A stretch of 61,072 nt of DNA from Candidatus Omnitrophota bacterium (GCA_043732705.1 JAYTHE010000034.1:1-61072); one strand, 5' to 3'; shown: positions 17,590-53,938, counted from the stretch's first letter. Numbers and translations: made by a program. The notes: generated by a model not told the origin, from the sequence alone.

Positions 17590-17838
17590 ATGAAAGAAGT
17601 CAAAGTTTATAGCACGAACTATTGTCCGTATTGCACGCGTGCCAAACAGCTTCTCAAGTCGAAGAACATTGCTTTTCAGGAAATCGATCTTACGAATGAC
17701 GCTGAATTGCGTGAAAAAATTTCCACGCAAACCGGCCACCAAACCGTCCCCATGATTTTTATCGGTGAAAAGTTCATCGGCGGCTTTGATGATTTGAACC
17801 GCTTAAATCAAGCCGGTGAATTAGACTCCTTGGCCTGA
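17590..17838 (+). CDS. grxC: Glutaredoxin (Grx3-like)
   Basis: Active site YCPYC, TVPMIFIG, and the GGFDD motif. The start is set to the ATG at 17590. Confidence 0.9.
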   Translation: MKEVKVYSTNYCPYCTRAKQLLKSKNIAFQEIDLTNDAELREKISTQTGHQTVPMIFIGEKFIGGFDDLNRLNQAGELDSLA

Positions 17839-18819: not shown

Positions 18820-21800
18820 ATGCTATTTCAACATTGCGTCTTTAAAAAGTGGGTTTCGGCGTTTGTCGCGCTTGTGATGTTTTTTAATTTCCAGGTTCCG
18901 TCTGCCTGGAGCGGCCCTGCTTTGCCGGTTTTGAATTTGCCCGAACATTTGGGCATGCTTAAAAAAGTCTCGCGCGGTCTTTCTTCCGGAAGATCCTCAA
19001 AAACGGTGATGCTGATTGAAGACGCGCATACCAGTATGGAAGCGCAAATCCGTATCCGTGATTTGGTCGGATTCTTAAATCAAAAAGAAAAAATCAAAAC
19101 CATTTTATTTGAAGGCGCGGCGCATCCGCTCAAACCGTCGCTTTATCACTTCTACCATGATCCCAAAAAACAAAATACTTTTTTGCAGAATTTATTGCAG
19201 CAGAGTGAACTCACTGGCGGCGAGTTGGCGCTCTTTGATTCCATTACAGGCAAACCGAACGCGCTGCGTGGAATCGGCATGGAAAACGCGGATGATTTTA
19301 TCCGCAATTTGCAAGCCGCGAAAAAGCTGTTTCGCAATCAAGGCGCGGTTCAGGCCGCGTTGGAAAAATTAGAGCAGGTGCGTGATAGAAAATGGCGCGG
19401 GCATGTATCCAAAGAATTAGAGGATCTGATTCGTGGGCATGAGTCATTCCGTCGCGGACAAACGGATTGGTTTGCTTATCTGGATTTTTTAAATGCTGCT
19501 GCCAAATCGACGTTGCATCTTGACCTGTCCAATCCGCGCTATCAGTTTGAATATCCGATGCTTGTCCGCGCGGCGCTTCTGAAAAACTCCGAAAAAGAAA
19601 TGAAGCCGGAAATAATCGAGCAGGACCAGGCGCGGTTAGCGGCTTGGCTTCGATCCCACGGTTTTAAAGATTGGGCGGGTCAAATCGAAACCAGCAAAAT
19701 TGAAACGGGTGAAATTCGTTCCGAACTCGAACAGCTTTATTCCGATGCCGCAAAGAAGGGACTTAATTTTGAAAGCTATCCGGCTTGGTCGCGCTGGATG
19801 GGTTTGAAAGGATTGGAACAGGAGCTCGACGCAGCGCTTTTTGAGAAGGAAATGAAAAAGCTGTTTAAGCAGCTCGTGAACCAATCTCTTCAAAATTCGG
19901 ATGAGCGTGAATTTGTGAAAGCATCGCAGGACTTGTGGAAGACGCATGACTTGCTCGAATTAAAATTATCCCGTTCCGCATGGCAGAAATTAAAAACCTC
20001 CGGGGTTATCCTGAACCAGGGGACTGACCCCGGTGGGTCTGTCCCCAATGCTTCCTCTGCGTCATTGCAAGGAGCGCAGCGACGAAGCAATCTGACACGA
20101 AGTGTCATCCCCGACTCGATCGGGGATCCAGCTCTGGATTCCCGCCTGCGCGGGAATGACAAAAAGCATCAGATCGCCGCGCCTTCTTCGATGGTTCGCG
20201 ATGACGAGCGAGGTGGGTCTGGCCCCAATGCTTTCTCTCAAAAGCTGGTTACCGAGCTTGCCGGGAATGATGCGTCGCTTGCGGCGGCCATTCAAGCTGC
20301 TTGGGAGTTTTATGACGCGGCGGAAAAGCGTGAAGCCGGATTTATTGCCGCAGCATTAAAACAACTTCAAACCGAAAACAAAATGGCCGTGATTGTCGGT
20401 GGTTTTCACAGCGATGCTTTGCGGGATGCGCTTGCCAAAAATAACGTCACAGTATTTGAAATTACGCCTCGCATCACGCGGCTTGATTTTAAAGAAGGCG
20501 AGGCGAAGTATCAGCGCGCCTTGCTCGAAGATTCCGCCTTGCAGCATATATTGCGAACGGATCTGGATTTAATACCTGTCAATGCAGCTTTCCGTTTGAG
20601 TGCAATAAACAAAGCCATGCCTGGAACTCCCGACAACAACCAGCTTTTGACTCAACTTTCTGGTGTTAGGTTTGCGGAACTCAAGACTCAAGACGCACGA
20701 CTCGCGACCAGTAAGCGTTCCGAATCCCGCGTGTCGTATGCCAAGCCAAAAAATTTACAGGAAGGACTTGGGCGTTACTATGGCATGAAGCTCGAAATGT
20801 GGAATGCGTTAAATACCGATGATGCGGATTTATTCCGTGCAGTACTCGTTGACTTTCGTTTGCTTGTAAAAGACACGAATGACCTTGCCCGGAAATTAGC
20901 GGATGAGAAGGCCGCGCAAATGGCAAGACAGGTTTATGCGATGCTTCTGCAAGGGGAGAAACCCTACCCTCAATTTTTGATTGATTTTCAAGATCCGCGG
21001 CTCATGTTGGTTGAGATCAGAGTATTACAAGATGCGGGAGATAGGGATTTTTTTAAATTGCGATCGACAATTATTGAGGAGATGGCCGGTGAGTTTTTTC
21101 CGACGGATGATGAAAAACCGAAACGGGAAGAATTAATTGATTTGCTGAGTTCTAAAATCGGCACCAATCATATTGATGAACGTTTTCCCGAAAAAGCTTT
21201 TGAAGGGGATATGCACGAATGGAAAAAATTCGCACAATCGGCGGTTGTGAATTTAAGTTCGAGAGCGACGGCGCATGGCAGCTATTCACCTCGCACGAAA
21301 AAAATTTATGTCAATCCTCATCCTATTTCAATCAAAGATTTTAAGCCTGTTGCTGCGGAGGAACGTGAAATTGTTTTGCGTTCAACGATTAAGCATGAAG
21401 CGACTCACTTAATTTCGGATCGTGACTTGGGTGAGAAACGGGTGCTCAAGGTGCCGGAGCGCTGGGAAACTTTGACATGGGCGCTGGATGTGATTGAACG
21501 TGTGAATATTTTAACCGGCAAACGTGCGCTTGATGAAATGGGTGCGAAAGAGCGTGAGGCTGCTCTGGAAAAACTGCAAAGCTACAACGAAGAGTTTGGT
21601 GAGCCGGCATTACGTGCTCTTTTTGAAGTTGGCCGCGAAATGGGCAAAAACAAAGAATATGGATTTTTGATTCTTCCGCACATTGATTCCGAAGCCGGTT
21701 ATTTTTTTATTGAGCCGTTGATTGAAAAAGCAAAAACAGTTTACGGTAAGCTGGGATTTCCGCTGCTTAATTTGGATGATCAATACACGCGTGAGCGCGC

Positions 21801-24800
21801 GGCAGCCATCATTTTAGGCGGAATTTTAACCACGCATGAAGACACGAAAAAAAATCCTGCTAAAGCTTTGAAGGATTTTTTTGACAGTTTGTATGAGATG
21901 TATGGGGCGCATGAAAATCCGGCGGTGATGGCAAGAGTCGCTGAGAATATCCGGTATGTAATGAATGCGCTCGTTGAAAAGCTCGCGGTGCGTGGTACGG
22001 ATATTGTTTCAGCGGGTTTTTGGAAATATGATCGTGGTGACCGCGTGGCGGGAAGACGGCCCACTTTTTATTATAACGAATCTGATTTTTTACCGCGTGC
22101 GTATGACATGCCCGCGGAGCTGCGTGAAAAACCCGTCGAAGCCATGGAAGCAGCTTTGCTGGCGGCGCGTGAACGCGGGCTTGGTAATGCTCATTTAGCT
22201 TTTGCTTATGAAAATATTGTGCATGGTGAGTTTGATGAAGCAGCACGCACGCTTCCTGAACACCGCCTTTTATGGCAAATGTTGTGGACTCCTCAAATTT
22301 ATGCATCGGAGCTCATGGAAACCGGCCACAAATCAGTTTTGCAGGTGGCTCAAGACCGTTTGATTAATGATTTGCGCGGCGGCGCGCGCTGGCTGACGCG
22401 CGTTTTTCGCGAGCGCTATAACCCCAGCGTTAATCTGATGGCTGCCCGCGCCCGGTTGGCGTCTTTACCGCTGCATTTACAGTATTTAGATTCCATGCTC
22501 TATGTTTTTTCAAATGAACTTCCTGCGGATTCCAAGCAGTCCGCTGATCCACGGCTTACTAATTCTGATGTGATTGCGGCGCTAAAAGCCACGCATGGTG
22601 ATTATGCTAAAAATCCAGGCTGGCTGCGCGCGATGATCGGCTGGAGACCTGAAGACGCGAATACACCCGCGAAATCGCAAGCCATGCTGGCTGAAGTTGC
22701 GGAATCGATTTGGCCGGTTTACAAAAAACTTTATGACAAAGCGGTCGAACAAATGCGTAAAGAAATTTTAGAACGTGCGGCGAACCGCGAATTGGAAGAT
22801 CAAGAAGTTCTGCAAATGTTAGGGGATATGACTCCGGCTGAACAGCAATTGCTAGAACAAATCCTGCAGCAAATGATGCAACAGTCCGAGCAGCAATTTG
22901 CTTCGGGCAATCAATCTCAAAACCAATCATCCATGCAGTCACCGCAGCAGCAATCCGGTCAACAAAGTGGCAGTCAACAACCCGGAGGACAACAGAGTGG
23001 TGAATCGCAAGCAGGTGGACAGCCTAGTTCAGGACAAGCGGGCGGCGGCGCGCAAAAGAGTAGTCAAGGAAATCCTGGGAGTGGTGGGCAGTCCGCAGGT
23101 GCGAGTCAGGGTAAGCAAGGTGCTTCTCAACCGGGCAGTGGATCGCAAACGGGCGGACAGCCGAGCAATCAAGGTAGTCCAAGCGGTGCGAAAGCGAGCG
23201 GCGGAAATCCAGGGGCTATGCAATCAGGCAATACGCCGGGATCAAACGCCGTTTCCAAGTTACAGGCAGCATTGCAAAATTTACAAAACTTAATGGGGAC
23301 TTTAGGCAGCCAAGTTCAAAATCTTGCTGCTCAGGCCGCACAAGTGAAACAGCAATTACCGCAAGTTGCGGGCGCGGCTGGGCAAGTCGGCGATGCTTCT
23401 CAGCAAGCAAAGAAAGCCGGAGCAGAGACAGCACAAAGCGGACAAAAAACTGAGCCGGGTTCGCAGGCTTCAGATTCCGGTACGCCGAACGCACAATCGG
23501 CAGCTGAAGCGGCCGCCGAAAAATTAAATCAAATGGCTCAAAGCATTCAGAACGAAGCCGCGAGCGCACTGAATCAAGCGAAGGATTTGGAAAATCAATC
23601 GTCTGCGGCACAAAATGCCGGCAATCAAATTCACAATCAAATGCCATGGAAAAATCCCCAGGTTGAGGCCGGGCAAATTGCCGCTCAAGCGCAGGCAATG
23701 AAAAAGAGCGCTGAGCAGCTGATGAAGCTCGCGAACCAAATGGCTGAAAAGGCAGCGCAAATATCAAACGAGGCCGGAGCGCAAAATCCGGAAGCAGCAA
23801 AATTAAAAACGGACGCGGAAACTATGACGCAAATGGCGCAGCAAATGAAGGCGAATGCCGACGATATCGTTCATGGTACGCGTCAAACCGAAGAAAGCAT
23901 TGCAGAGGCTGAGAAATCTGTAGCAGATGCGGCAAACGCGATTCAAAAAGCGCAAGCGTTGATCGAGAAAATGGATGCTGCCAAACAACAAGCCAAAACG
24001 GATTCCGGGAACGAAGTCAAACAGCCCAAGGGCAGTTCTCAAAAGACAAGTGAAAGCCAGGGAGGAAAAGGTACAGGGAAAAGCGAGGCCGGCGGCAGCA
24101 GTAGTGCGGGCCGCGGCATTGAGGCCTCCGGACAGCTTTCTGATTTACCGAAGCCGCCGACTTCTTTTGGTATGCGGGAAATGATGAAACTGGGTGATAA
24201 CACAAACGGGAACGCCAATACCGGCAAGCCTATAGCAGGTATTGATTTTCAGCCGGATGATTATGCGGGGCTGGCAGCGGCACTTAAAAAAGTAAAAAAA
24301 CTCAATGCGGCAGAAAAAAAAGAATATGACAGTTGGTTTTCCGACAAGGTGCATGACCCGGACGGTGAGAAAGTTACGGTGCGTGACATTATCGATGAAA
24401 TTGTATTTTTTCTGAACAGTACGCTTAAAGAATCGCGCGGAATTGATAAGGTGGACGCGCCGCACGGAGCTGTGCTCGCGAATGTGGTTAAAGCGGTTAA
24501 CGGTGCCGCGGGCGGCTGGGCCAATGTGGACTTCACTAAAATCCCCGAACTTTATTTAGCTTTGCTTGTTGATGCTAGCGGTTCGATGGGAACCGAATTT
24601 TATGGAAAAACAAAAACCCAAATCGCGCAAATGGTGGCGTTTATTCTGATGGAAGCGATTTATGAACACAATCTTGAACGCCGCAAGCTTGCATTGCCCG
24701 TAATTAAAATGGAGATTGGGATTTTTCAAAGCGCGGTTGATTTATTGGTGAGTCATGAACAGTTTGAAAATATGGATGACCGGGAAAAAGAATATTTTAT

Positions 24801-27800
24801 TTATCATTCCATCAAGAAGTTTGAAGAAGGCGGCAGTACGGAATACTCGTACGCGGTTAAACGTTATTTTGAACATGTCGCCAGCCTTGGCTTTGAAAGG
24901 AAAGTTCAAAACGATGTTTTTGTGGTCACCGATGAAGCTGTTGGAGAAACTCAAAAAAAGGAAGTTCAAGGTGCGGTTACTTTCGCAAAAGATGAAAATG
25001 TCGGCTTCCATATTGTTCCACTCGGTGATGACGATGAAATCGAAGCATCCAAGCAACTTCATGGTTCCGAACTTGTAATTGATCCGCGCACGCTTGAGAA
25101 ACGTGTTGAATTGCTGCCTTATGTCATGATCGCGCGCATGATGGGCCGGCTTGCCAAAGAGTATCGCATTGCATTGCCGCCGCGCTTTGCGCGTTATGTG
25201 GCGGAGACTGACGCCGCCACTCGCTCTGAAGCGCGTGTATCTGTGGATCTCAAAAAATTGCGCGATATTCCGGGATATCAATTTTTCAAAGACTACACAG
25301 ACGCCGATGGACGTGAGTTTTTAGTTTGGCTGCGCGCGGGTGAAACTATGGCTTGGCAAAAAGGCGTGGGCGGCAGCGAAGTGCCGCGTAACCGGCCCGC
25401 GATGACTCCCGAAAACGAAATTATTCTGTACGGTTTATTAAGCAAACTCTACACGCCAGATGTGATTTATACGTCGATTAACGCTGACCGGCGTTATTTT
25501 ATCCGTGAAGCGCAGAACGGAAAAACCGAACTTTTTTTCCGTGAGAAAGAAGAGGACGGGTGGAAAAGTGCTGCGAAATGGGGGATCCAAAATCGTCCGG
25601 TTGTGGATGGAGAACGGTTTCGCGGCGCGAACGGTGTGACCTGGAAAGCGGCGAATTCGGGGAAGGTCGAAGTCAGTTTGGAAAACGGCACATCTTTTAA
25701 AGTTGATTTGCCCGAAGGGGTCGCGGTGGACAAAGTTTATTTTGAACAAGCTGGCGACGAGGATACGGTTTATTTATTTCAATCCGGGCGCGCGGCGCGA
25801 GTCCAAGTTTTTAAAAAAACGGGGACAGTCTGGAAGCAAGCGGCAGACATGCAGATGGAGACTTGGACAAAGGCCGATGAACCCTTAAAAAAAGTTTTGA
25901 ATGCGACGGGTCTTCCCGGACTTGGCAAAGGCGTGCTTTTGCGTGAAATGGCGCGCATGATGAATTTGGAATATTACAAACTTGCCGCGGACGAAAAAGT
26001 GCATCCGGAGGAATTGGCGGCAAATCGCGCTCTTCGCGATGGTGTCTCCGCTGACGATCCTTCCTCATGGACGCAAGCCCGTCACCTGGGAGCTTTATTT
26101 GTCGTGGATGAAGCGCATAAACTTTCCAAAGAAACCATGAATTCAATGAAATCGCCGATTGCCTCAGGTTTGCATGAATGGGTTTACATTACTCAGGATG
26201 GGCAGTATAAAAAAATGACCGTACCCAACAGCGCGATGGCGCGCATTGTTTTCACTTCTAATACATTAGTTCAGGGAATTACCGGCTCCGCCCTGACGGA
26301 TTTGGATCCCGCCATGCGTAGCCGCATTATCCTGCAGCAATTTAATTGGCAAAGTCCGGGCGCTGAAAAGAGGCGTCTCATGTTGCATGCTGAAAAATTT
26401 GTGCGGGATAATCCCGGCCTCCAGCTGCCGTCAGACTTGAATGAAACGGTCAACCGGTTAATGAAAGCTGCCGCGGGTTTGCGTATTGCTTATTTGGGGG
26501 GAGATAAAGATGACATTGATGCCGCCATGCAAACGAGCGATGGAATTAATTATCCGTATTGGGAAAGAAAAATTGAGGAATTATCCCGCAAATTTAAAAC
26601 GCCGGGTATTTTACGCGCGCCTTCCGCCCGTGTTTTGCAAATGATGATGGAACATTTTATCCGCTTTCCGCTGGATGCAAAATATAGAAAATGGTCGGTG
26701 GTCCACCGTATTTTTAATTTTCGCGCCGAAGACGATCGTAAGAAAAGCTATGAAACCGTGGAAGCCGCTTTCCAGAAATTTTTTGAAAATGATCCCGCTG
26801 CCGGTGCGCGCAAACCGCATTTTGATCTTAAACATTCTTTTCAGGTTGTGCGCCGCGGCCAAGACGCCGAAAGCCTTCCTCTTTACAGTTTGCAGGTCAC
26901 GGCTACGGGCCCTGACGGCAAGCCCGATCCGTTTTTTGATACGTTTGAAGTTCCAATTCACCGCGATAGCGAGATGGTTCAGCAATTTGAGCAGGGCGAA
27001 ACACCCGAATTGCCCGCCGCATTTCAATTCCTTTTACGTTATCCGCAAAATCACGAATTGCTTTATCAAATGCTGCAGGCTTATGCCAAAGACCGTGATG
27101 TTATTTTGGTGGGGCCCGCTTCCACGGGTAAAACGGTGATCGGTACCACGGTCCAGGAATTGGTGGGCGGCCGTGGAGTGACTGTTGAAGCAATGTATGA
27201 AGGCGTAACGCCGGAAACATTATTTTATTCGCCCGGAATCGGACTTGACGGAAGAAGATGGGAAAGCGGATTTTCTGCCGGCTCAGTGATCAAAGCCATG
27301 CTGGAAGGTAAGCCGATTGGCTTTGATGAAACAACGCAGGCGGAAGCGCATGTCATCGGCAAATTGAATGAAGTTACCGAGCAGCGCGAATATGAGCACC
27401 CCGGCACGCATGAAAAAATTCATGCGACTCGCGGTTTTTGGTCATTGCATTACATCAATCCTCCTGATGGCTATGACACCGGCACAGCGTCAGCGGAATG
27501 GTATGAACGGCATGACATTTTATGGGTGGATGCTTTACCTATTCAGGAATCCATGGAACTTTCGGCTTCTGCGGGAGATCTTGGCGATAAACAAATCAAT
27601 CCCAAATTAATTGGCTTGGCTGCTTTGCAACGCGGAGAATCCAAGGGATTGGTAGCGCTTATGGAATGGTCGCGTCAAGCGGCGCGGGGAACAGCGACAG
27701 GCAAAGCCAAAGACTTTACCAAGAAAATCAAAAACGAAATTGAAATTCGGCGCATGATTGAAGCGATAAAAGCCATTGCGCAGAGATTCGAAACAGAATT

Positions 27801-30800
27801 TGCCCTGCAAAATCGCAATTGGGTTTTGGAAGCCGTTAAGTGGGGGATTTTCGGGAAAAATCGTGACCCCGAAACCGTAACGGCCACCGAAATTCGGCTG
27901 GTGATGAATGCCTGGATGCGCGATGAACACGCCGATTGGAAAAATCAGAAAATAGGCATGGGAGATAAAACGCGGCATGATTTTACGATCGAAGTGCTGC
28001 GTAAACCGCAGGAAGTTTTGCTGGATTTAATTAATCAGAATTATCAATTTCAATTTCCCGAGTGGCATGAAGTATTAGTCGACGGTCTCAAGCAGGCAGG
28101 CCTTTGGAAAGACGAATGGAATCAAGACGGTATTACGGAGCTCTTGAATGGCGAAGATATTGTGCTCGAGCTTCTTCCGCTTTTACCAAACGGCAAGCCT
28201 AAATTAGACGGCACGGAATTCAATGAACCTGTGTTGCAGGACGTGCTCGAATATATTGAACGTAACGTTGATGGCGCGGCACTGCAGGAAAAAATAAAGT
28301 GGCTTCAGACAAAAATATCAGAACTTTACGCGACTCATAAAGACCCGGCTAAAGCGGTTAATATCTGGAACAAACTCGATTTTGAGACTCGGCTTAAGCG
28401 GCTTGCGGTTCTTTCCGAAATTTACCGCATTTTGAATTTAACAGTGACATTGCGTGGGTATGGAGTAAAAGGGCGCACCCACAATGAAGCCAATACCAAA
28501 GTGCTGCGTTCCTATCTCGATAATATTGAACGTGCTATCGAAGCCCGCGATTGGCCGGTGGCGGCGCTGAAGGACGCAGAAAATCCTGAGTTTGATGCGG
28601 TCAAAAAACTCGAGGGCTGGCTCGCGGAATATAAATTCAGGAAGTATACAATTCTTCCGACTGGTAAGAGTGCGATTGACGGTTTTGGAAGCGAAGAAGC
28701 GCAGGATTTGGGCGCGCGGGCTTTTGTTTTGGGGAGTCAGTATCCCGATTATACAAAGATCATCGTTCCGAAATTGCAACTTGCAAGGCAACAAAAACCA
28801 CCGCAAGCAAAACGTTCCGAAGTCCGTAGGGGTCTGTCCCAAGCAGTGCGCGGGACTGATCCCAATGCTCCCGTTACAGCAGTCTTTGGTCTTTCTAGAA
28901 ACCATAAGGGTCAGTCCCCATTCGAGGACAGACCCTCCCGACGTTCCGAAGCGCGATTCGATGATGCGATCCTTGAGCTCGCTACCGCCCAACAGGGGTT
29001 GAGCTCAGCACGAGCGCTTCAAGATTCGATTGGCGGAAGTGAAAGTATCGTTGCCGCCGCGCAAAGACAAGTTGAAGCTTTAGAAGTTGAAGTAGAGAGA
29101 CTCAAACCAAATGGCTTTGATGTGGCCGCCGCGCTTGTAGTTGCGAACCAAGCTGCATCTGCGACTCAACAAGTTGCGACGCCTGCTCCCGCACCTGTTG
29201 CGGCTCCAAAAACTGTGGTGAGTAATGCAATTCTAAAACATTCAAATATTATCGATTATGCGTCGTCATTGGGTTTGGGAAAAGGCACGGAAAAGTATTG
29301 GGATCAGTTAAAGTACCCGGGATTTTTTCAAAAAAAATGGATAAGTTTCGGCTATTTGCTTCTCTGCAACCTTTATATTTATCTGGATTATGTTTTATTG
29401 TTTTGGAATACATTTACCGGTCTTCTCGAACGCGGACTCTTGAAGGATGAGCAACCGCCCGCTCTTTACATGGCGGAACGTCATATGAGAAGTCTCGTAT
29501 TGGATGTCCAAATTGCGACAAAAGATGTGGATGCGCCTGAGAGTAGAGAGGCTGTGCGTGTTGAACTTGCTTTAGAACAAAAGATAAAAGCATTTCGCGA
29601 TAAGTGGAAATTTAAAAATAAATTTCTTAATTATTTTACCACGGGCATTTTGGAGCTCTACCTTCCGATTTGGAGAAATGCCACCGCTGTTGCGTGTCTT
29701 AGCGAAGTGAAAGAATGGCTTAAATACCCGCAGCGAAAAGCTAATCAAATGTCGCGCGATGCTTTTAATAAATTCATGGCGGCTGAAATAGGCAAAGAGT
29801 CAGTGCAAGGGTTATTCGGCAGATTGGTTGAGCTCACCCCAGATTATTATGACACTCAGACTAGCTCGGGATGGTTGGCGGTTCTGTTATGGCACAGAGC
29901 TTACGCGTCTAAAAGAGATGATCCTAACACTCAAACGACACCGTATATTCCCAAGCCTGAAATAACACTTATTGATTTAATGCGTGAAAACCGGCGTGAC
30001 ACGCAAAAAGCACTGTCCGATGAAGAACGAAGAACGCTGAGTGTAACGGCAGGAATTTTATCGCAAAGATTTTGGCTGGAAATGGCTTATGAATTCCGTG
30101 AAGTCTCGCGAAATGGATTTTACTTCGCGGAACACATGCTCGATGCCGGATCCGTCACTGCGCAAACAATAAAAAAATCACAACAGGATTTAGCGCTGAT
30201 GAAACAGGGGCTGGACGCGGATGTCGTCACTGACGAAGAGCTCGCAGAGATTTCAAATAAAACGCGAGCTATTTTATTTGATGACTTCGGGCAATATCCA
30301 AACTTTCAGTACTCCCATTTAATTTGGAATATGATCGAGCCGCTTCTGCAAAAAGAGGTTGATGCGGATGAGCGGCGATGGGGCTATGCTGATTTTGTGA
30401 GTGTTATTCAGCAAGCGCTGGGCCACCAACTTCAATCCCGCTGGGTCGCGCAGCCTGATGATGCCGCGTTTTTGGCGGTGATATCAAATCGGTACAGACA
30501 TTTTTTTAATATCAGAATGTCGCTATCTAAAAACCAAGCGCATTTCGATGACGAAGCACGAAAACGACTAAAAGAACCTGAGCCGATTATTTTAAGAAAC
30601 AGGCTTGCGACCATGAATCGATGGTTTGTGGAGGAAGAACCAGACAACGAGGAAGTTGAAGCGAACTCTAATGACGAATTAGCCGACATCGTCGCACGCT
30701 CTGAAGTTCGTGGAAACCACCCGCACCCCAGGGGTGCGGCCCGGGTCAGCACCCCTGGGTTGTGGGTGGGGCAAGACGCGGCACTATCTTCACGTTCCGA

Positions 30801-39800: not shown

Positions 39801-42800
39801 TAGAGGGAAAAATAATCCGATTGAAAGAGTAAACACCCCAAAATCTGCTGACACAAATATAGGATTCGAAATTGTCTTTGCGGATCCCGCCACTTATGTT
39901 TCGCCGAATGCCGCGCGTTCTGAACTTCGAAGTCGTCAGTCTTTAGTCGTCAGTCTTCAGTCGGCTCGCAGTGAAATGCGTGAACAAACAACCGTAGAAG
40001 AGGCACTGCAAAAGGCGCGTGATGAGCATTCCCAACTAGTTCAGCAACATTCCAGCATGCAAGCATTGGCTGAATCGCTCGGAGACGCAATTGACCTAGC
40101 TGTGACCGCGGGTCCGGTTGCTGTGGCAGCGGAAGCTATTCGATTGCTTGAAGATAAATTGCGCGAAATTATCGAAGCAAAGAACAAAGTTCCCGGGGCC
40201 GAACGCTGGATTACACTCCTCGCCGCGAAAGAAAAAGAACTTGCGGAATTGAAAGCCTTGTTGGGGACTGACCCCAATGCCGGTTTGGGAACGGGGTCTG
40301 TCCCCAACGCTCAACCCAAAACGGTAGTTGCCGCAGAACCTCAGCCGATCATTGAAGATAAATATGCAAAACTTAATGGAATAAATAACGCGCGGGCGAG
40401 TTATTCTCACGACTTTTCAGTAATCTCAATAACTGTGATTGACGATATCCCAACGTTAATAAGCGGGTCGCACACTATTCCCGGTAAATTTGAAAATGTC
40501 CTTGGAATGGAATGGCTTCCGACGGGGAAAACGGATAGGCCCTGGATGCTTGTCGTGATTGGTAAGGAGGAGTTTTGGACAATTCTTGTGGATGGAAAAG
40601 GTGCGCCGCAATCGCCTGTCTCACATACTCCCGTACAAACTGGGCACGTAATTAAAAACTGGGAGATTTATAAACAAAATTTAGAGCAAGGGTCTCCAAA
40701 TAAACATAGTTTTTTACTCGTTTTTGATGGAAATGCCCGGAAAGTTTTGACCTACTACAGCGTCGTCGATGGCGACGTGAGATTTGTCAATAATGGGGTG
40801 GTTGGCCCAAAACATGAGCTTTTCGCAAAAATGAAAGTTGCGCAGGAGAAGCTAGAGCCTGAACCGATTATTGAAATTAAGATGGCGGATCTTAATGCGA
40901 CACAGCAAGTGCGGACGGATTATTGGGCCACTAAAATAAGTTTGAATGTGTTAAACAATGGTAAGAGAGTGGCTCGGCATGAAATTCCTGGGGCATTTGA
41001 AAATATTCTTGGTATGGAATGGCTTCCGACGGGGAAAACGGATATGCCATGGATGCTTGTCGTGATTGGTAAGGAGGAGTTTTGGACAATTCTTGTGGAT
41101 AAGGCAGCTGTGCCGCAATCACCGGAATCCCATGCGCTCACCTCCGAGGGTGTCCAATACAAGAACTGGGAAATTCGTCAATGGAACCACGGGCCCCAAA
41201 ATTATTTTCTGATGCTAAAAGACAGTGCGGGAAAAAATTTGCCTTATGCTTTTATTGATGGCCAAGTGAACCCTTACAACAGCGAGGCAAACTTAGGTCC
41301 CCATCATTCTCTATACACAAAAATGAAGGTTGCGGATGTCGCGGCATCGGATGCAGTTCTCAGCGCTGCACCGCAAAAAAGATTAATGCCCTTAGGCGCT
41401 TTGCCGATTTATTTGCGACCCAAAGTGACAGTAGGTTCAGGTGAAGAATTAATTTTGTCCGGCAGCAAAGATGATGACGCGCTTTTACTTGTTTTTAAGC
41501 AAGTTGGAGCTGTTCCCAACTCCGAATCTATCGAGGCGCTTCAAGACAAGCGTGATTTAATTCAAGCGGGTTATGATCCGGCGCAAAATAAAGTTTATAT
41601 CGTTGTTTCCAATCAACCGCGTGTTCAAAATCAAAGTCAGGTTGCCGCGAAATCAAGTACGACAACATGGGGCACCACGATAGAATATTTAACTCAATCT
41701 GAGGCGCTCAAACGCCACGATGAATTTAAAAGTAAAAATATTCTGAAATACGTAGAGGTTCCTACAGAAGCCATGGCCGCTTCCTCCCTCGGTTCTCCGG
41801 CCTCGGGCCTCCGGTCTCGTATCGCTGCGTTAGAAACAGAAATCGCGCGTCTCAAAGATTTGATCGCCACATATGAAAAACGCGCGAAGGTTATCAATGA
41901 AATGACCGCCCTTGAAGCGCGAATCACCGGGGACAGAGCTCTGGTCGGCAGCTCTGTCCCAAATGTTCCCTCCGCTGTCGCACCTCAAAAGCAATTGAAA
42001 AAATGGGATGGTAAGGATACAGGTCTGGTCAAGAAAAAGGGCAATACAATTACGATCAAAAGCGTCGTGAATGTGAAAATTCGTCCAGATCAAATTGCCC
42101 AACTGCATGATGATAAGGTGGGTGCGCTGACGATTGTTGTGGCAGACGACGTTGTTACGACTGATTTTCCTCAAGGAGTAGATGGCTATGTCATTAGGTG
42201 GATTAAGGAGGAAGAAGTTAGAAATCATCCGGAACAATTTTCATATCTTGCTTTTGAAAGTGGCCCGATCGCGGGCGCAACCCAAAAGCAACTTATTAAA
42301 TGGGATGGTGAGACGCTGGTTAAAATTGCAACCAATTGGGATTTGACCTATGCTTCTCCCGGAGTTGGGGAGATTGTAAATAGCATGGGCAGTAGGTTTG
42401 AGTTGCCCGTGCCTCTTCAAAGTATTTTGCAGGTTAAGCCTGATCGATCGACCAATGACTTTGTTGTTTTAGTGGACGAAGCAGTGGATATTGCAAACTT
42501 ACCTGCCTCGATTCATGCCAAAAATAACTCGACCTCAATTACAGTGCGTTGGATAAAACCCAGACAGCTTGAAACCCTCGAAGATGGACGTTTGGCAGCG
42601 CCATCCATGGCGACAGGCCCACTGGCCGAATATGCTGAACGAGTCGTATTTGATACTGAAGATGTTTCTGTTGAACCCACAGGGGACAGAGCTCTGGTCG
42701 ACAGCTCTGTCCCCGATGCTGTCGTTGCCACTCAAAAACGATTAATACCGATGCCGCGGGATGGTAAGAAGCAAGTTCTGGGTTCAACTAAGACGGGCAT

Positions 42801-45800
42801 CGAACTCTTTTTTTACATGATGGCTTCCGGCGACATTATTTTTTACGACAGCGGGAATGACAATGACATCATTTATTATAAAGGAACAACGCAAAAACAA
42901 TTAAATGAAAAAGATGTTGTTCAAATTAAATTTGATAGAAGCAAAACTGAAATTTATATTATTTTAAAAAATGATGTAGTTGGTCGGTTTGGAGAGATGG
43001 TTAATCTTGCGGGGCAATCTATTGCGGTGAAATATCTTTATGAAAAAGACTGGAATCGAGACACCGAACAATATCCCAATATTTTTGAATGGGAAGATGT
43101 TCCGGTCGCTGTAAGTGCTTTGGGGACAGACCCTGTTCCCGAAATTGCGCTGGGGTCAGTCCCCAAAGCAAAGCGTCTTACGCATCTTAAAGATGTTTCA
43201 AGTATTCTCGACGATAAAATCCGCATGCTTGAAGCATTGCTTGGTGGAACCGAAGACCATGGGGGACAGAGCCTGCCTACCGGTCAGGCAGGCAATATTG
43301 CTCTGTCCCCAACGCCCTCTGTCATTCCCGCGCAGGCGGGAATCCAGTCTTCAGTCTCTGGTCTCTTGTCTCCTGACTCTAATAAGATCGAACTTTCCGA
43401 CGGTATTTTTGTTGGGTTTGGAAAATGGAAATGGGGTGTAGGCCAAATCGATCAGGACGGCCAATTTCTTACGGGCACTGAGTGGTATGGCAGATTTGAT
43501 AATATCCAAAAAATAGAGGTTCACGGTACGGGTGAAAAGCGCATTTTATTCATTACAGATGAAACAAGAATCGTCGCGGTTGAACTCATTCAAGAAACCG
43601 ACAGCGCCGGCGAATCAACCTTTCATTTTTGGCATCCCGGTCATGTCATTTTAGACCAAGAAATTAGCGCGCCCATTCAAAATTCACGCATACATGCTTT
43701 TGCTGATTGCGTATTGTGGACAGGTTGGTTTCAATCCCCTGAAGGCCCAAGATTCTTTAAGTATGAAATCAATTTGGTGGATGGAAGTGTAACAGGTCCA
43801 CCGCCGAGTCTATTGGGTCCGAATTTTCATGGCTTAAATTACTATCAAATCGGAAGCGAAGAATATATTTTTCAAAGCTTTGGAAATAATTCCGCGTTTC
43901 AACTTGATAAAGTCTTGGAAACCGAGGCAGGCATTGTCATCGATGGGGTGAACCATGTTCGCTGGGCAGATTTGGGCATCAAACCTGCTCTGGGTGATTT
44001 TAAGTCTGGGAATCCGATTCAAATCGGCGGGGAATGGTATTTGCAAATTGAATCACAAATTCCGGGAACTTCGAACGGTAAATACTTTAGTTTGAAAAAG
44101 TTAGAACATTCGTTTAAAGAAGACAGAGTTGCCTTCGTCTATCAACTTGATTTAACGACTACAATCCAGGCTTTGACGGCAAATTTTTCATCGGAAGTCA
44201 GCGTAAAATCCGTTAAAAATAAAGATGACAAAACCATCGTCCGCTTAGCGGGTTTTCCTGATGGTGAATCTGAACGTGATTATGAGTGGGTGAAGCAAGG
44301 CAACGAAATTAAATTTGTTCCTGTCCCCGGTGTTGCGCCCAATACGCCACCACCTACCATAAAAAGCGCTGTCAGGCTGGACGAAAAATATTGGGTGGGT
44401 TTAACGGATCATGGGATTCAAATCGCTTACAACCCCAAACCAGGAGAGGTGGGTATTCAAAATAATAAGCCGTTGGCGGATATTCTCAAATTTGAATATA
44501 AAATTATTTCCGGAAAGCCCTATTTATTTATCACAACTAAGACGCGTTTATTATTGGTTCCGTTTGATTCCAATTTAGGGTTTAAAGCGTTTGGTGCGCC
44601 TGTATGGGAAAAGACATTCGATCCCGCTCAGCCGATTGCCGACTCCAAAGTTGCAGTTCTTGATCCGATTGGTGAAAACGGCAATTTGGCTGGGCGTTGG
44701 ATAATTTACGCCGCAGAAGCCGCGGGGCACAAAGCGTTAACTCAAAACATCGATATTTATTTTGAGCCGACCGGAGCTGTAGATCATGTGGTTCCTCAAG
44801 ATCCGGTTCGATTTACGCATTCGGATGCCCAAATCGGATTTTACGAAATCGACGGCGAATTTTATAAATTTATGGGCAATCCTTATTTATTTGAGATTCG
44901 TCAAATTGTTCGATCAACAACTGATGGTTCGATCCATGAAGAACAAGTTGGTGGCCGGAGCTGGAAAGACATGGGCTATGGAGACAGTAGCGGCGGAATT
45001 TTTGTCGCGGCGAATGTCATTCGAATTGATTCGCCATTAAAAACGGATGATGAAAATTGGAATACGGATCTTTTTCTTTCGGTTGCGTATTACTATGATG
45101 GGGCTGGTGCCGCGGAAACCAAATTCGCTCTGTATCCAATCAAAACGGAAAAACGATTAAAAGCCACAGGACACGGCAATACATTTATTGATCGAAAAAC
45201 CCACAAAGTTTTGACGGCCCCCAGTTTGGTGCCAATTAATGCTTCACCACTTCCCGGTTATTACAAAATCGGCGGATCTACTGGCAATAAAATTCAAGCC
45301 AGCATCGAAATAAGTGGGGTTGCGGAAAATTATATTCTTGAATGGCAATTACAGGCGGACGGCAAAACTTTCAAATTGGTCCAGACGCCTAGGGTGACAC
45401 AGCAATTTAAACTCAGAAGATCTAAAACTAATTTTGTGGGAAGAACTCTGGTTTGGGGTGACTCAGACGGAACGGGTATTGATTTGCGTGTTAGTGGTGA
45501 CGCAGTTTCTCTTGAACATCATTCTCTTGCGGATAATGGAGACTCTTCGACCGATGGAGTTCATGAGTTTACCGTCGATGTTCATGGTCTTGAAGCTTCA
45601 AACTTGGTTAGTGTGAAGTACGATTCAGCGACCGATAAGATTTATTTTGTTGTTAACGGGTTATCTCAAATGTCCAAAAAGCCAACTGTTGAGGAACCAT
45701 GGAAAAAAGTTATTTGGATTGATCTGGACGAAGCTCAAAGCGCAGAAGGCTACGCGAAATACAAAGATATTTTGGATTACGAACCTGCCTCTCTGCCCTC

Positions 45801-48800
45801 AAAGGTTTTCCCTGTCTCCGGTCTCTTGTCTCCTGTCCCTGCCTCGCCGGCAGGCAGGTCTAGTCATGAGAATGCGCCTGCGCTTCTCAAACGTCTGAGT
45901 TTCCTCGACCGTTTATTAGCTCTTCTCGAACAGCATTGGGAGTTATCCATTGCTGGCAGCGTTGGATTGGGCGCAGAAGCAACGGAAACAGTTTCCTCGG
46001 GCCTCGGTATCAATGAATTAGAAAAGCAGCTTGCAGAAGTTCAAGCTGAGCTAAAAGCAAATTGGGAAATGAAGCAAGGTCTAAGCACAGCCGGTAATCC
46101 ACGAATGACTATTCGTCATATACCATCGAATCAAAGTGTGGCGTGGTGGTTTGGCACTTTGGGAGAGGTTCCCGAGTCTGAGGATGATGAAGATACAGAT
46201 CTGAAAGTGCGTGATTCAACCCTTCTCACTCAATACCAAGCCTTAAAGAAAAAAGAAGCGGAGTTAACCCAGGCTATCGCTGTTGCGGAAAAATCAGCAC
46301 CCTCGGTTCTCGGTCCTTCGGCCTCGGGCCTAATTGGATTAGTTGCCAAGGAAATCCGTTTAATCAAAAAATGGCTCAGACTGGATACGCTCTTTGAAAC
46401 TTTGAAAGCAAGACTCGCCGCATTCATGGAGCGAGTTTCCTCGGGCCTCCGGCCTCCGGCCACGGTTCCTGTTTCCGCACAGCCGCCGCTTTGGGACGCA
46501 GGGGAATTTTATGCAAGATTGCCTTGGGATATTGATTCAAACTCAAACGGACTGGTTAAGAATATTAATTTTCAAGATGCCGGCTGGAGCTCGATGAAAT
46601 ATAGCCCTGATTACTGGACGCTCAGACTTAAATATAAAAAGGCAAGTGATGACCCTTCCGTAGTGCATGAATTTACAGTTCAAGGTATCCGCGAAGGAAC
46701 AAAATCCAGGCTTATGGTTTGGGGTAAAAAAATCTCTGAAGACATGAGCGTGCTTTTAGATGTGAGTTATGATGCCATTGAGCAAAGGCTATTTTTAACG
46801 TTTGACAGCTCAGTTGAACAGTCCGTAAGAGATGCGCTGAAGCATGCTGATCTTGAAAACAATGAGTTAGGAATAAAATTTAAAATCCAATTCTCAACCC
46901 GTGAAAAAGTCATCGCCGCGAAAGCCCAAAAACTTGAACGCTGGGCTCCCTTATACGGAGATATCAATACAGACAAAGGGGGGCGCAGACTAACTGCGGG
47001 CCCGTTCCAAGAGAAAATGTCATTTAAAGTGGGTGTTCAGAATTGGCAGACAGAAATTCCAAGCAGTCCTATTGTTCAAATTCGCGGGAGCATAGATCTC
47101 AAAAAAATTGTGATTGTTGTCGAAGATGGAACTATTACGAGCGATGTCGCGACATTCATTCGAGAGATTGAGCTTGATGGTGAGAAATATGACATCGTTT
47201 ACATCCAAGATAAAGATGTTGTTCGCGTCGAAGACCAATCCATTTTTAAATTTGAGCCCGCGGTATTGGAGAAATACACGATTGTGAATATTGCGAAAGA
47301 CACGCCCACAGAATATTTTTTGGGTGGGCAAGAGAGCATTTTATTTTTCCCGGAGGGCAAGAAGGTAGTTGTTGCTGAGACAAAAAAAGGTGGAATTGTA
47401 GAAGCATTTGGCTGGCCGGGTTTACACGATAACTTCATCAACTACTTTTTGGATCATGATGATTTGGGAAGAAAGAAGTTGGTCATTATTGTAAAGGAAA
47501 AGACCGACTTCTCGAAATATCCAATACATATGAAATTGCTAAATTTGGATGTTGAATACTGGGAGGGGTCGGTTGCATTAAAACCCGAAAATATCTCAAA
47601 GATAAAAAATGCTCTTGGCAACAAAGCAAATTTAGTTCTTCAGGCAATGGAGACTGTCACCGCGCCCGCAACCGTTGTTCAAAAACAAAAGGCAATTCAC
47701 CCCACGTCAAAAGCTGAAGTTGAAATGAGACTCAGTTCGGATCACAAAGTGCAGATAGTGGGTGCCGATTGGAATATGCCGCATAGAGCTGATACTTATC
47801 AGCTTCCTGACGACGTGATTCACGCTAATATTTTTTATTGGTTAGACCAGCTCTATTTGCTGACATTTTCAAAAGATAGAACAGGGCCTGGTACGGCGAT
47901 TAGACTTTATATGCCCACACAAGGTCAGTTAGGACGGACAACTGATGAGCCCTATAGATCACCGCTTCCAGTAAAAGGTTATCAATTGGTGCAACCAACG
48001 GGTGCTTTATCTGATTATTATTTAAACCTGGAGATGGAGTCGGGAGCGATTGCCACGCAGAGTGGACCGGTTTCTGCCCTGCAATTAAATTTTCCGCTAG
48101 CAACTTTGGATTATTACGCAAGTATCGCCCAAGGCGGTGAAAAGATTATCGACGTAACAGCTCTTACCGATGTTTTTCAACCCGCCGCCGCGCCATCATT
48201 AGAACATTGGGATGGCAATGAAATGAAGTTGGATGGGACCAACTTATTATTTAAAAAAGAAAATGGGTTGGTTTTATATAAGGCAGAAGGTAAATGGTGG
48301 ATTCTTCAAAATAATGAGCCACAGAGAGTTCCGGCAGATGCGGTGATTCAAATTACCACAAGGCGTGCTGGAGACTTGAGAGAGCCGCCCGAGCCCGATG
48401 AAAAGACAATGGTTGTTTTTGTTCTAAGAGATGATTATGGGCATGCGATTAATTTTAATACGTTGGGTGGATATCAAACAACGAGTTATACAGAAACTGG
48501 GGCAATTAAGGCCATTGCTGCCGGCGTTGATTTTTTCAAATTTGCTTCGAAAAAATCTGCAACAAAAACGCGGATTAAGCCGCAGACGACAGGTAGTTAC
48601 AATTTGGGTAAAAACCATGAGGGGGCGAGAGTTGAATTCTCCAGATTGGACGAAATTAGCATGGCTTTTTTTGCGCATTACCCTGGTGGTGGCGCATATC
48701 AACACAATGTTTATCATAAAGGTGGTGTTGACCAATTGAGCCCCAAAGATATTTTGCAAACCAAACTTGTTAATGAACATGGTTCTTTGTCTGTCTATAT

Positions 48801-51800
48801 GGCCGTGAAAAATGGTGCGGATATTTCTAACTATCCCACAAGCATACTTTTGGACAAGAGCGATGCCGGCACGAAATCGGGACCGGGATTTGCGAGAATT
48901 TATTACGTTGAAGAATCTAACTATTTAAAAGAACCTGAGAAATATCCGTCCGGATTATTCGAAACCGAAACCGTGCAGTTGAAACCGATGCCGGCGGGTG
49001 ATGTTGAAATTGGAGAAATGAATGACGGTAGTAAAGTAATCTTGGCGCAGGTAAACGGATTTTATTTTACAGTTGAATCGCAACCTGATGTGACCGGCAA
49101 ATTTGAATTTACAAGACAAGACATTTTGCAGGTAAAAATTCACGATAATAAATTTTATATTGTCGCCCAAGCAGGCATTGATTTCAGCGGTTGGTCCCTT
49201 GAAGGCGAATCGCTTCCGGCAGGGCACACTTACCACGCAGTGATTTTGACACCCGAACAGGCTGTGAGTCCGCGATACGCCGGAATTTTCGAATTCGAAC
49301 CGGTTTCCAACGAGGCCGGAGGCCGGAGTCCCGAGGCTCAAGGCGAAGCCATTGAGCATAGAGCGATTGCTCCGTCTTCTGCGGCGGTTGTGATTCACGC
49401 ACAAATGCAGCAAGTCGGAGAGCAACGCGCTGCAGTTGAAGCTCAGATCAAGGCATTGCCCCCGTCGGGGACTGACCCCCATGACGGCTCGGGTACGGGG
49501 TCTGTCCTCGATACTGCGAAATGGCGCGTTGCGCCGTGGGTTCAGTCAAATGAAATTTTAGCCGAGCATTTTATAGATGCCGCTCAGGGAATAGCTATAG
49601 AACTTGATCCGGGTAGCATGCAAAGCACGGGGCGAATTTTTATTAAGACTACTGCCATTCAACAAGACGGAACTGGGAAATGGCGTAAAACTACGCTCGC
49701 AGAGCATATTAAAAAATTCGATATAAATTTGGCCGAGGCAAATTTTATTGCAATGGGCTACGATTCGAAGAGCAGAAACTTACTAGTTATCGTAAAAGCC
49801 AAACCAGACAATGCCCAAACGTCTTTATTGGTTTATGCTCCCTTGACGCGGCTAAACATAGAATATTTAACTGAAGCCGAAGCGCTTAATCCCTCTCGCC
49901 GCGAGGAACTCGAAAAAGCGGGAATTGTGTTTGAATCTATTGCTGCGGTTACGCAATTCAAAGTAGTGTCGGATCCACGTCTCAAACAAGGCACTGTTGA
50001 TATTCAGCATGTCGGTAGCATTGAACATGGTGGTGATACTTACAATTTGATGCTTGAATCCGGTGCAGCAAGGCCTGAGGGTCAGACGCTCTTGGTTAAG
50101 ATGCAGCGTAACGCGGAGACACCTACAATAGAATTGTTCCTTTTGAAAGATGAACTTTTGGCCTATGGGTTTGATGCATCCCAAGTTCCCGCAAAGCTCG
50201 TTTTTGTTTATAAAGAAAATACAGATCTTTCCGGGCGAGGCAGCAAAATAGAAGCAGTGGGCTCAGCTAAGATCGCTGATGTTAAGCATTTAACCGAATC
50301 TCAGGCTCTTGCCCCCGCCCGCCGCAAAGAACTCGAGAAAGCGGGAATTAAGTTTAAACAAGTTTCGACCGGATTTGACGCAAAAGAATTATTTAATAGT
50401 TTGCCGTGGACTTCAGTTCCCATGCAAACGGGATTGAGTATAAAAGTTTTTGATGAATCGGATACGCGGAAAGGCCGCATGGTTTGGCATGAAAACGGAG
50501 ATTTTGATTTGTTTGCGGGGAAAATCAGGGTGCGAACTAAGCCCGGCAGCTCTGATCGAATTGAATTGATGAATGCAGACAATTCGATTGTAACGGAGTT
50601 GCCTTCAAAGTGGCTGTTAAAAGTTCGGTATGATGCTGCCGCAAAGAAGTTTACATTTGTTTTTGATAAGGCCGCTCAAGACGAGGTGTTAGCGCATATG
50701 GTGAAAGCAGGTCTTGCCGGAATAATACCTGACACCACCCTGGATTCAAAAATTGAGTTTGAGGAATCGTCTCCGTCGAATGAGCCCAAACTTGCGCTAT
50801 GGCCGACTGATGACCAGACTGCCAGCGTCAAAATTGCGGGCGTGAATATTGTTGCATCGGTTTCCGGAACAGGAACTATAGTTCTTACCGAGAGAGTGCC
50901 GGTGGGAAGTGCTCGCGGCGGAGCTCCGAATTTGATTCCGAATACGTATATTCCCCTCGATGATTTTGTTACCCTGGGCGTGGATCCGGATGGCGTGAGC
51001 GCTATGGGTGGAAGGGTGCAAACGCTTGTGATTGTTTTGAAAGATAATCCCTCATTTCAGAAGCCGAGTGATGTCGAAATACAAATTGGCAGTGAAGTGG
51101 TTTTGATTAAGTATGAGCAAGAGTCGGATGTGCTTAAGCATTATTCTGATTATGCTCATGTTTTGAAATCAACCGGCTTGGCCGCGCGCGCGGAATTTTT
51201 GGCGAAATGGAATGCGATTCATACAACCGATCCGATTAAGCCCGAAGATATCGTCCTTGATAAATTAAGTGCGGACGGAACGATTGCGATTTTTGCAAGT
51301 GTTCGACCTGTTGTAGGCATGCCAAAGGAGAAGCAAATATCTTTTTATCGATATAATATTCAAAGCGGTGAAATAGACTATTTCCACCAGCAAAGGCCTG
51401 TTTATATTCCGAATGACCAGGTAGTCGTTGATATTGCCATTTCTCCGAATAACAAGGTTTACTTTTTAAAAATGAAAGAACGAGACGGAGATATTATTAC
51501 TTTTGGTTCAGATAGGACGAAATCCTCTAGCGCGGCTTTCATTGATCCGAAGTTTGATCAAACATTTGAAAATATTTCATATCACATATTTCTTGCGGGA
51601 GGCAGTTCTCATTTCCAAACCGTTAATCTAGGTGGGCCGGTTGTTTTGCGTTCGGAAATCAGAGTCAACCACCGCTCGGCATCCAGTCATCGCGAGGAGT
51701 CCCTCAAGGACGACGTGGCGATCTCTCGCAGAAGAAGTGAGATTGCTTCGCCTAAGGCTCGCAATGACATTAAACCCTTGGGCCCCGGGGCTCCGGCCTC

Positions 51801-53307: not shown

Positions 53308-53370
53308 GTCATCCCCGCGAAGGCGGGGATCCAGATTTTTAAACTAGATTCCCGCTTTCGCGGGAATGAC
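53308..53370. repeat. Intergenic copy of the GTCATCCCCGCG..GGGGATCCAG / CTAGATTCCCGC..GCGGGAATGAC palindromic element
   Basis: Two hairpin units in inverted orientation. Same unit as at 20104-20160 and 43321-43347. Confidence 0.75.
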
Positions 53371-53906: not shown

Positions 53907-53938
53907 ACTGCTGAATCACAAAAGTAGAGCTCTTGTCG

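Follow-up and report, generated by a model that had tools for sequence, protein, structure and literature searches.

The stretch of DNA analyzed here (the window; 61,072 nucleotides (nt) from Candidatus Omnitrophota bacterium, GCA_043732705.1 JAYTHE010000034.1:1-61072) carries a giant open reading frame (ORF) of 11,223 codons, with an mRNA of 33.7 kb, that is flanked by ordinary housekeeping genes. Inside this ORF lies a family of short DNA palindromes built on the motif GGGGACWG and its complement, which we called family C. An earlier note on this sequence had listed 15 hairpin loci of this kind, and all of them are present where it placed them (Table 1). On both strands of the window, GGGGACWG was matched 24 times, versus 1.46 expected from dinucleotide shuffles (maximum 5) and 1.94 +/- 1.3 (maximum 7) in synonymous-codon shuffles of the ORF. 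All 24 matches fall within positions 20019-49474, i.e., inside the giant ORF, where perfect hairpins of at least 10 bp were also in excess (10 observed vs 1.4 +/- 1.2 in the synonymous shuffles). Stems and motifs alike exceed what shuffled-codon controls produce. The matches pair into the 15 hairpin loci, except that the arms at 25821 and 44321 stand alone, each lacking a partner. A covariance model, built on the 12-nt arms of eleven copies and run with filters off, returned 30 matches in the window at E <= 10, every one of them on a known locus inside the giant ORF.

The copies were grouped into sub-families named after their peptides: GDRALV (four copies), GTGAG (four copies) and GTDP...GSVP (five to six copies), in addition to one frame-shifted copy and one nested composite. 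Single elements are 28-49 nt long, and the composite is 118 nt. Their outer 8 bp (GGGGACWG / CWGTCCCC) hardly change from copy to copy. Farther in, four stem pairs vary by sub-family but keep their complementarity (GACC/GGTC, GAGC/GCTC and GGCG/GTGC, of which the third has a G.U).

Table 1. Giant ORF, family-C hairpins and other translated repeats in the window (aa, amino acids; z, RNA folding against dinucleotide shuffles).
Feature	Position	Strand	Remarks
Giant ORF (11,223 aa)	18820..52491	+	signal-peptide-like N-terminus, AAA_5 domains, rest orphan
Hairpin GGGGACTGACCCC-ggt-GGGTCTGTCCCC, peptide GTDPGGSVP	20019..20046	+	z -3.1; covariance model 34 bits
Composite nested palindrome, four arms read GLS / GTDP / GQSP / DRP	28823..28941	+	z -4.5
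GTGAGVPVP sub-family hairpin, G.U wobble on sense strand	31101..31128	+	z -3.9
GTGAG sub-family copy, 3' arm decayed (CTGCCCCC)	33807..33834	+	z -1.6
GTGAG sub-family copy, one codon changed in 5' arm (GGGCAGACTGG)	34981..35010	+	z -1.1
GTGAG sub-family copy, 5' arm altered	35428..35457	+	z -1.4
Degenerate copy, 5' core GGGGACAGACCCC intact, partner decayed	37035..37075	+	z -0.7
GDRALV sub-family copy, perfect 12-bp stem	38761..38793	+	z -4.4
GDRALV sub-family copy (GGGGTCAGAGCT...)	38887..38919	+	z -4.2
GTDP...GSVP hairpin (copy 40263), palindrome reaching into flanks (GTTGGGGAC...GTCCCCAAC)	40260..40308	+	z -5.5
GDRALV sub-family copy	41929..41961	+	z -4.5
GDRALV sub-family copy, perfect 12-bp stem	42682..42714	+	z -5.0
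GTDP...GSVP hairpin (copy 43122), 18-nt arms (TGCTTTGGGGACAGACCC / GGGTCAGTCCCCAAAGCA)	43116..43170	+	z -6.4
Third-frame copy (GGQSLPTGQAGNIALSP), second hairpin nested in loop	43262..43310	+	z -5.4
GTDP...GSV hairpin (copy 49467), one change in 3' arm (GTCCTC)	49464..49512	+	z -3.0
Family-A in-ORF copies	20103-20165, 43321-43347	.	translated in giant ORF
Family-A intergenic palindrome pair	53308..53370	.	same family as in-ORF copies
Family-B palindrome in frame inside AddB (53933-57202) (EIASLPAVARNDQQGEKGARNDGSLRGGKADEAIF)	55450..55560	+	~45-aa insert
27-nt direct repeats 20032-58 / 20212-38 enclosing palindrome block	20032..20238	+	93% identical, starts 180 nt apart
(GGTCTCS)n sites	37063-37090, 38817-38840, 43350-43375, 45810-45835, 53944-53985
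GGCCTCS variant of heptamer repeat	41795, 46320, 46440, 51790

Conservation of the family is at the level of the nucleotides, not of the peptide. The evidence is that the same DNA is read in several frames with a fixed choice of codons, its stems are lost on synonymous shuffling, and its arms covary. The earlier note had reported use of all three reading frames, and this was found for the 5' arm, which is read as G-GGG-ACW ('GT', frame 2) in seven copies, GGG-GAC/GTC-AGA ('GDR' or 'GVR', frame 0) in four and GG-GGA-CAG ('GGQ', frame 1) in one. The 3' arm uses two frames only, TCW-GTC-CCC ('SVP/VPVP') in nine copies and CWG-TCC-CC ('LSP/QSP') in two. The arms are built from one set of codons that is otherwise unfavored in the ORF, where GTC makes up 19.5% of Val codons and CCC 26.6% of Pro codons. 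GTC-CCC encodes 10 of the 52 VP dipeptides, when ~5% would be expected, and nine of those ten sit in 3' arms. In contrast, RSExR, a peptide-level motif of the same ORF, is written with varied codons (CGT/CGC, TCC/TCT/TCG/AGT, GAA/GAG), a difference that the earlier note had drawn correctly.

These observations contradict the explanation that family C is a linker motif at the level of the protein (G-T-D-P...G-S-V-P-N-A), with codons that are complementary by chance. The 3' arm is indeed read as SVP or VPVP in nine of eleven copies, and a semi-conserved RAYGC tail, encoding N/D-A, often follows it outside the palindrome. However, the three frames of the 5' arm, the codon bias and the abolition of both motif and stems by synonymous shuffles leave such a motif extremely improbable.

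Stem alignment gave further evidence for conservation of the paired structure, as 92.5% of cells were paired and 12 cells had changed on both sides, which none of 500 shuffles reached. For example, compared with its siblings, copy 38761 has one arm changed T>C and the opposite arm A>G, with the result that its stem remains a perfect 12 bp at the cost of Ser>Gly. Where mispairs occur on the sense strand, they are of the G.U type in three lineages and of the A.C type in one. The central W.W position, at which both arms have synonymous sites in the commonest frame, is mispaired in half of the copies. When the RNA was folded and compared with dinucleotide shuffles, eleven loci had z <= -3.0 (-3.0 to -6.4) at energies of -21 to -47 kcal/mol, with single-copy mRNA hairpins at -16 to -34 kcal/mol. 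The four others (33807, 34981, 35428 and 37035) fold weakly, at z -0.7 to -1.6, and have the look of copies in decay.

Are these hairpins then selected as RNA structures on the 33.7-kb mRNA, where they might pause ribosomes after modules, block 3'-5' decay or serve as processing marks? The stability of the stems, the compensatory change at an amino-acid cost, the preference for G.U on the sense strand, the single orientation of each sub-family, the confinement to one gene and the placement in predicted coil after helices rich in E, A, L and K (see below) would all fit such a role. Nevertheless, decay is visible in four copies, breaks in the central pair are frequent, and many paralogous junctions have no hairpin. 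No orthologs were found that would show long-term conservation, and the window sequence was found in only a single run, of DNA, from a sediment metagenome. Moreover, loops are as conserved as stems within sub-families, for which identity with loops included was 0.88 (GDRALV, four copies) and 0.92 (GTGAG, four copies). This last finding points to recent copying rather than to selection on structure alone, and overall we regard selection of the RNA as unlikely.

Two other roles were considered and rejected. Intrinsic terminators were dismissed as there was no family copy among 15 terminator-like sites in 30.5-50 kb and no T run follows the copies. Stimulators of -1 frameshifting were dismissed as inspection revealed no slippery heptamer upstream of the paired copies.

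The borders of the elements are sharp, with 40-nt flanks of sub-family copies having an identity of only 0.28-0.35, i.e., background. In five to six of the six frames, most copies contain no stop codon, and orientation is constant within each sub-family. No target-site duplication was detected at the simple copies, whose longest flanking direct repeat averaged 3.6 nt (null 3.5 nt), and there was no conserved GTAG-like 5' head in the flanks of the copies. A perfect 11-nt direct repeat, ACGTTCCGAAG, lies on both sides of the composite at 28823-28941 (at 28812-22 and 28941-51), although this is only suggestive of a target duplication since the same nucleotides are codons for RSE. That the copies are confined to one gene, fall into sub-families of constant orientation and have no target duplications suggests that they were copied inside the gene by recombination or conversion. 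For the same reasons (no target-site duplications, one orientation per sub-family and the failure to find a copy beyond the gene), classical transposition by cut-and-paste is unlikely.

Comparison of gene order suggests that the giant gene itself is recent and lineage-specific, added as part of a 34.7-kb stretch between the glutaredoxin and SDR genes. The two closest relatives with fetchable DNA (L123 and L122, with AddB 71% and 60% identical, respectively) have the order M48 peptidase, ferredoxin, LytB, glutaredoxin, SDR, PTPS, AddB; glutaredoxin and SDR abut, and the giant gene is absent at that syntenic site. In the window, 34.7 kb separates glutaredoxin (17572-17838) from SDR (52569-53300). 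This segment (17840-52570) consists of the giant ORF and a 180-aa ORF (18092-18634) that is a truncated paralog of the giant protein's N-terminus. The AddB-like gene (53933-57202) encodes a protein whose nearest relatives are in Candidatus Omnitrophota.

By the searches made, the giant protein is an orphan apart from its N-terminal domain. A homolog search with aa 6401-8200 returned no match, a full HMMER pass with aa 7101-8200 over 1.84 billion representatives found no homolog, and none of the C-terminal 1000 aa was found in JGI metagenomes. The sole homolog of aa 1-1300 was one protein of 1573 aa, 25% identical in the N-terminal domain. Separately, we noted that the window has (5113-10329) a transporter gene of the ShlB/FhaC type and an ORF of 1117 aa with no Pfam match, both between DHH and aminotransferase genes that adjoin in L122, making this region a second lineage-specific insertion. 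The transporter and the 1117-aa ORF are possibly a two-partner secretion pair.

Many copies come after helix-like stretches rich in E, A, L and K and before the next block of the protein. Hydrophobic residues are slightly scarcer in their flanks than at random positions (0.275 vs 0.312, P ~0.03), and the four copies covered by a single-sequence AlphaFold model fall in coil; that model was run without an alignment and is of low confidence (pLDDT 41), so its coil/helix pattern alone was used, cautiously. Paralogous modules are recognizable in the protein, and a hairpin lies at some of their junctions (e.g., before the modules at aa 5556 and 7173). Two paralogous segments, aa 3990-4094 and aa 7048-7148, end at hairpins of different sub-families. 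However, junctions between tandem paralogous modules (aa 7346 and 5729) are without a hairpin. Placement at module junctions is therefore plausible, but not proven, and the earlier assertion that every copy sits at such a junction is only weakly supported by the hydrophobicity and coil data.

The position of the copies raises the possibility that they are joints of module assembly, either sites of recombination and shuffling or relics of intergenic palindromes captured by gene fusion. The same core is found between genes in another genome (L010, see below), the giant gene is a recent addition, the two paralogous segments end at different hairpins, and pairs of RSExR bracket palindromes and a block with antisense coding. 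Yet there is no recombinase in the window, the hairpins are not followed by relics of in-frame start codons or ribosome-binding sites, tandem paralogous modules lie together without hairpins between them, and the one available assembly has no variant arrangements. We consider this origin very unlikely. A further proposal is that the hairpins are functional punctuation of the giant mRNA, stem-loops on a palindromic core common to several bacterial phyla that are retained between modules, pacing or protecting the translation of a message of 11,223 codons or acting as in-frame joints for module exchange. If true, the hairpins would form a new class of cis-element, intragenic and peculiar to giant genes, but we find this decidedly doubtful.

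During these analyses, we also observed that the giant protein from aa ~4715 to 4940 (window 32960-33640) is rich in S, T and R and looks as though it were read in a wrong frame. The stretch is antisense to two small, tandem, coiled-coil-like ORFs on the minus strand (33228-33506 and 32994-33221), and has RSELR and RSEVR at its two ends. Other pairs of RSExR enclose inserted-looking sequence at 28812-28951, 30673-30831 and 39892-40005, namely the composite family-C palindrome, a different palindrome (30717-30769) whose arms are 26 nt long, and a short direct repeat. Possibly, RSExR motifs delimit spacer segments.

Family C is not alone, as three further repeat families conserved at the nucleotide level are in frame in genes of this genome. 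Family A, GTCATTCCCGCGCAGGCGGGAATCC, is translated as VIPAQAGIQ or LDSRLRGND. One of its in-ORF copies, 43321-43347, comes directly after the family-C copy at 43262-43310. In the source metagenome, that family-A copy has a depth of 1230x vs ~13x elsewhere, and hundreds of contigs end in it. Family A is a true high-copy repetitive extragenic palindrome (REP). Family B, GAGATTGCTTCGC...GCTCGCAATGAC, is in frame inside AddB, where its ~45-aa insert is absent from all orthologs, including those that are 67-71% identical. Members of families A (GTCATCCCCGACTCGATCGGGGATCC / GGATTCCCGCCTGCGCGGGAATGAC) and B (CGACGAAGCAATC...) also make up the palindrome block at 20032-20238. The 180-nt offset of the 27-nt repeats around this block equals 60 codons, and the 3' arm of hairpin 20019 lies within the first of them. 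Alignment of the sole homolog to the N-terminal domain stops at aa 408 and picks up again at aa 494, with ~56 extra window residues at the block. As the gap in the homolog is exactly there, the block is an insertion, and hairpin 20019 is older than it. A homologous hairpin at the equivalent site of P0063 was considered and rejected.

The third of these families consists of tandem heptamers, (GGTCTCS)n, which are read as SPVSGLRS both in the giant ORF and at the N-terminus of AddB; the degenerate family-C copy at 37035-37075 runs into one of its arrays. Slippage of the 7-nt unit could shift the reading frame. A comparable situation was found in AddB of another of the Omnitrophota (L121), which has, at 8313-8351 and 8650-8720, two in-frame copies of AAAAGGGGTCAGACCCCTTTT (peptide KRGQTPFPDKKGSDPF) and a PLPKGEG...SLSPGERLGEG palindrome in frame, both absent from its orthologs. 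The in-frame palindromes of this AddB include GGGGTCAGACCCC.

We scanned one genome per species with the pattern GGGGACWGASC-N(2-32)-GSTCWGTCCCC, and found at least 133 matches at no fewer than 120 loci (L001-L120). Among the matches listed were Burkholderiales, other Proteobacteria, Clostridia (26-31% GC), Planctomycetota, Poribacteria, Treponema, Actinomycetes and Bacteroidota. The form GGGGACAGACC...GGTCTGTCCCC accounted for 97 of the 133 matches listed, and the other three palindromic versions allowed by the pattern for 4, 3 and 1, i.e., they were 25-100 times rarer. Given this imbalance, the core palindromes (also written GGGGACAGACCNC) represent a real family and not a generic hairpin background. 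In the same set of matches, the consensus extends to gGAAAtA-GGGGACAGACC-(C/A/T)C-(G/A)nTTT. In the window, the 13-nt core, GGGGACAGACCCC, is carried, paired with its complement, by the GTDP-type copies (20019, 37035, 40263, 43122 and 49467) and the composite. What the GDRALV and GTGAG types have in common with it is limited to the outer 8 bp (GGGGACWG/CWGTCCCC). Core copies in low-GC genomes among those matches are not spanned by long ORFs, and those of L010 lie between genes. In two high-GC loci (L023 and L006), long open frames without Pfam support span the elements, and these were left out of the intragenic cases.

Database searches did not place the core in a known family. Rfam gave nothing at the gathering score in the window and only sub-threshold, miRNA-like hairpin matches at the other loci, the literature search for the core sequence gave primer coincidences only, and a plasmid BLAST with the consensus element returned nothing useful. 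In viral contigs, the core and two control patterns were matched 3 vs 0 and 1 times, too few to use.

Taken together, we hypothesize that family C represents DNA palindromes similar to REPs, or to the Rickettsia palindromic elements (RPEs) discussed below, that lie in frame in permissive linkers of a young, lineage-specific giant gene, a reading to which we give an even chance of being correct. A palindrome with the pan-bacterial core GGGGAC(A/T)GACCCC would have entered a linker of the giant gene and then been copied within the gene by homology-driven processes, either ectopic gene conversion or duplication between linkers. Templated correction of quasi-palindromes could keep the arms complementary with no need for selection. 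Copies would persist as they add only small peptides rich in G, T, D, P, S, V and A, without stop codons, between folded modules, and the strong mRNA hairpins would be a by-product with possible side effects on translation. The occurrence of paralogous module junctions both with and without a hairpin supports this reading. The suggestion in the earlier note of elements like REPs or MITEs (miniature transposable elements with inverted repeats) tolerated in linkers fits best, because the genome has other in-frame palindrome families and the core is found in many phyla. Its other two suggestions, ribosome pausing and module shuffling, received no specific support from our results.

Several results weigh against our hypothesis. 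A selfish element is expected to spread beyond one gene, and neither regular expression nor covariance model found a family-C copy in the 27.4 kb of the window outside the ORF, of which 5.5 kb is intergenic, just as the earlier note had it. The covariance model likewise found none in 33 kb of the closest relatives, L122 and L123. No further copies of the sub-families were found in the source metagenome at 80-90% likeness, and the GDRALV pattern had 0 matches in JGI metagenomes. No transposase, recombinase or RAYT (Y1) domain was detected among the ORFs of the window. An ortholog of the giant gene, which would show directly whether a family-C copy was inserted, was absent from every collection searched. 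The constant orientation of each sub-family would also fit a function in the mRNA. Lastly, the tie to the widespread core rests on 13 nt, which convergence could explain.

The confinement of the copies bears equally on the explanation that family C is an ordinary genome-wide REP or REPIN family, mobilized in trans (e.g., by a RAYT-type transposase) and merely seen by us inside a long gene. The size and shape of the palindromes, the lack of target-site duplications, nested and compound forms like those of BIMEs, and the wide occurrence of the core in other genomes are what such a family would have, and family A does exactly this in the window, with intergenic and in-ORF copies and a ~100-fold excess of depth. 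For family C, however, there are 15 loci in the 33.7-kb ORF and none elsewhere in the window or in the relatives' DNA, and there is no GTAG-type head. Read depth over its copies in the source metagenome was normal. In an 80% likeness search, the sole other contig matching copy 43122 carries copy 40263 of the same gene, and a 53-nt query on copy 42682 retrieved only copy 41929. These searches rule out more copies of the same sub-families, while relatives with divergent loops would escape them. At a more distant locus in the Omnitrophota, matches to the covariance model were weak only (<=15 bits). Flanks, close relatives and the rest of the source metagenome gave no sub-family copies, and family C is probably not a generic genome-wide REP. 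As a whole, we consider the trans-mobilized family quite unlikely.

Giant genes of the Omnitrophota are a recent discovery, and the papers on them that we consulted make no mention of palindromes or hairpins. If our reading is right, part of the "linker" of a giant gene is repeat DNA living in frame and not selected as protein. Several repeat families would then live in frame in one genome, even in the housekeeping gene AddB, and one of them would have multiplied within the giant gene only. This bears on how giant ORFs grow and on the share of functional protein in them. For annotation, GTDP..GSVP, VIPAQAGIQ, ARNDGSLRG and similar peptides are to be taken as translated repeats. In addition, the presence of a 13-nt core in palindromes from Clostridia to Burkholderiales, of which we found no description, is a pattern that deserves its own study. 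In-frame palindromic repeats as such are already known from Rickettsia genes (RPE) and occasionally from MITEs, as PMC10969869 describes. What is new here is the host, a giant gene of the Omnitrophota, together with how small the elements are, their limitation to one ORF, the co-occurrence of several translated repeat families in one genome, and the tie to a palindromic core shared across phyla.

Family C can be compared with several known classes of element. With REPs, BIMEs and REPINs it shares a length of ~30-50 nt, an imperfect palindrome or stem-loop, sub-families, compound nested forms and the lack of a target-site duplication. REPs, as treated by Nunvar et al. in 2010 and by Bertels and Rainey in 2011, are reportedly extragenic, dispersed and numerous, tied to a RAYT gene and provided with a GTAG-type head. 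Family-C copies differ in being all intragenic and in one gene, with neither a GTAG head nor a RAYT gene among the window ORFs. To the widespread palindromes of the form GGGGACAGACC(C/A/T)C, the GTDP-type copies are alike in their core and in having a variable inner stem and loop; the former are not spanned by long ORFs in low-GC genomes, whereas the window copies are all in the giant ORF. MITEs have inverted arms, are non-autonomous and can form in-frame fusions, according to PMC10969869. Compared with those that are occasionally found inside ORFs (Correia/NEMIS, ERIC), family C is far shorter, has no target-site duplications at its simple copies and has no known parent insertion sequence.

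A further likeness, drawn from its description, is to the RPE, a palindromic repeat that lies in frame within protein genes and adds a short peptide while the ORF remains intact (PMC10969869). RPEs are ~100-150 bp in length (same source) and are spread over many unrelated genes, whereas family-C elements are 28-49 nt and occur in one gene of a different phylum. Insertion into a pre-existing protein was seen for sister families A and B, and for family C there are paralogous junctions with and without a hairpin. Nevertheless, family-C copies are likewise in frame in a protein-coding gene whose ORF is preserved, and the insert in AddB and the 180-nt block of the giant ORF, both made up of the sister families, behave in the same way.

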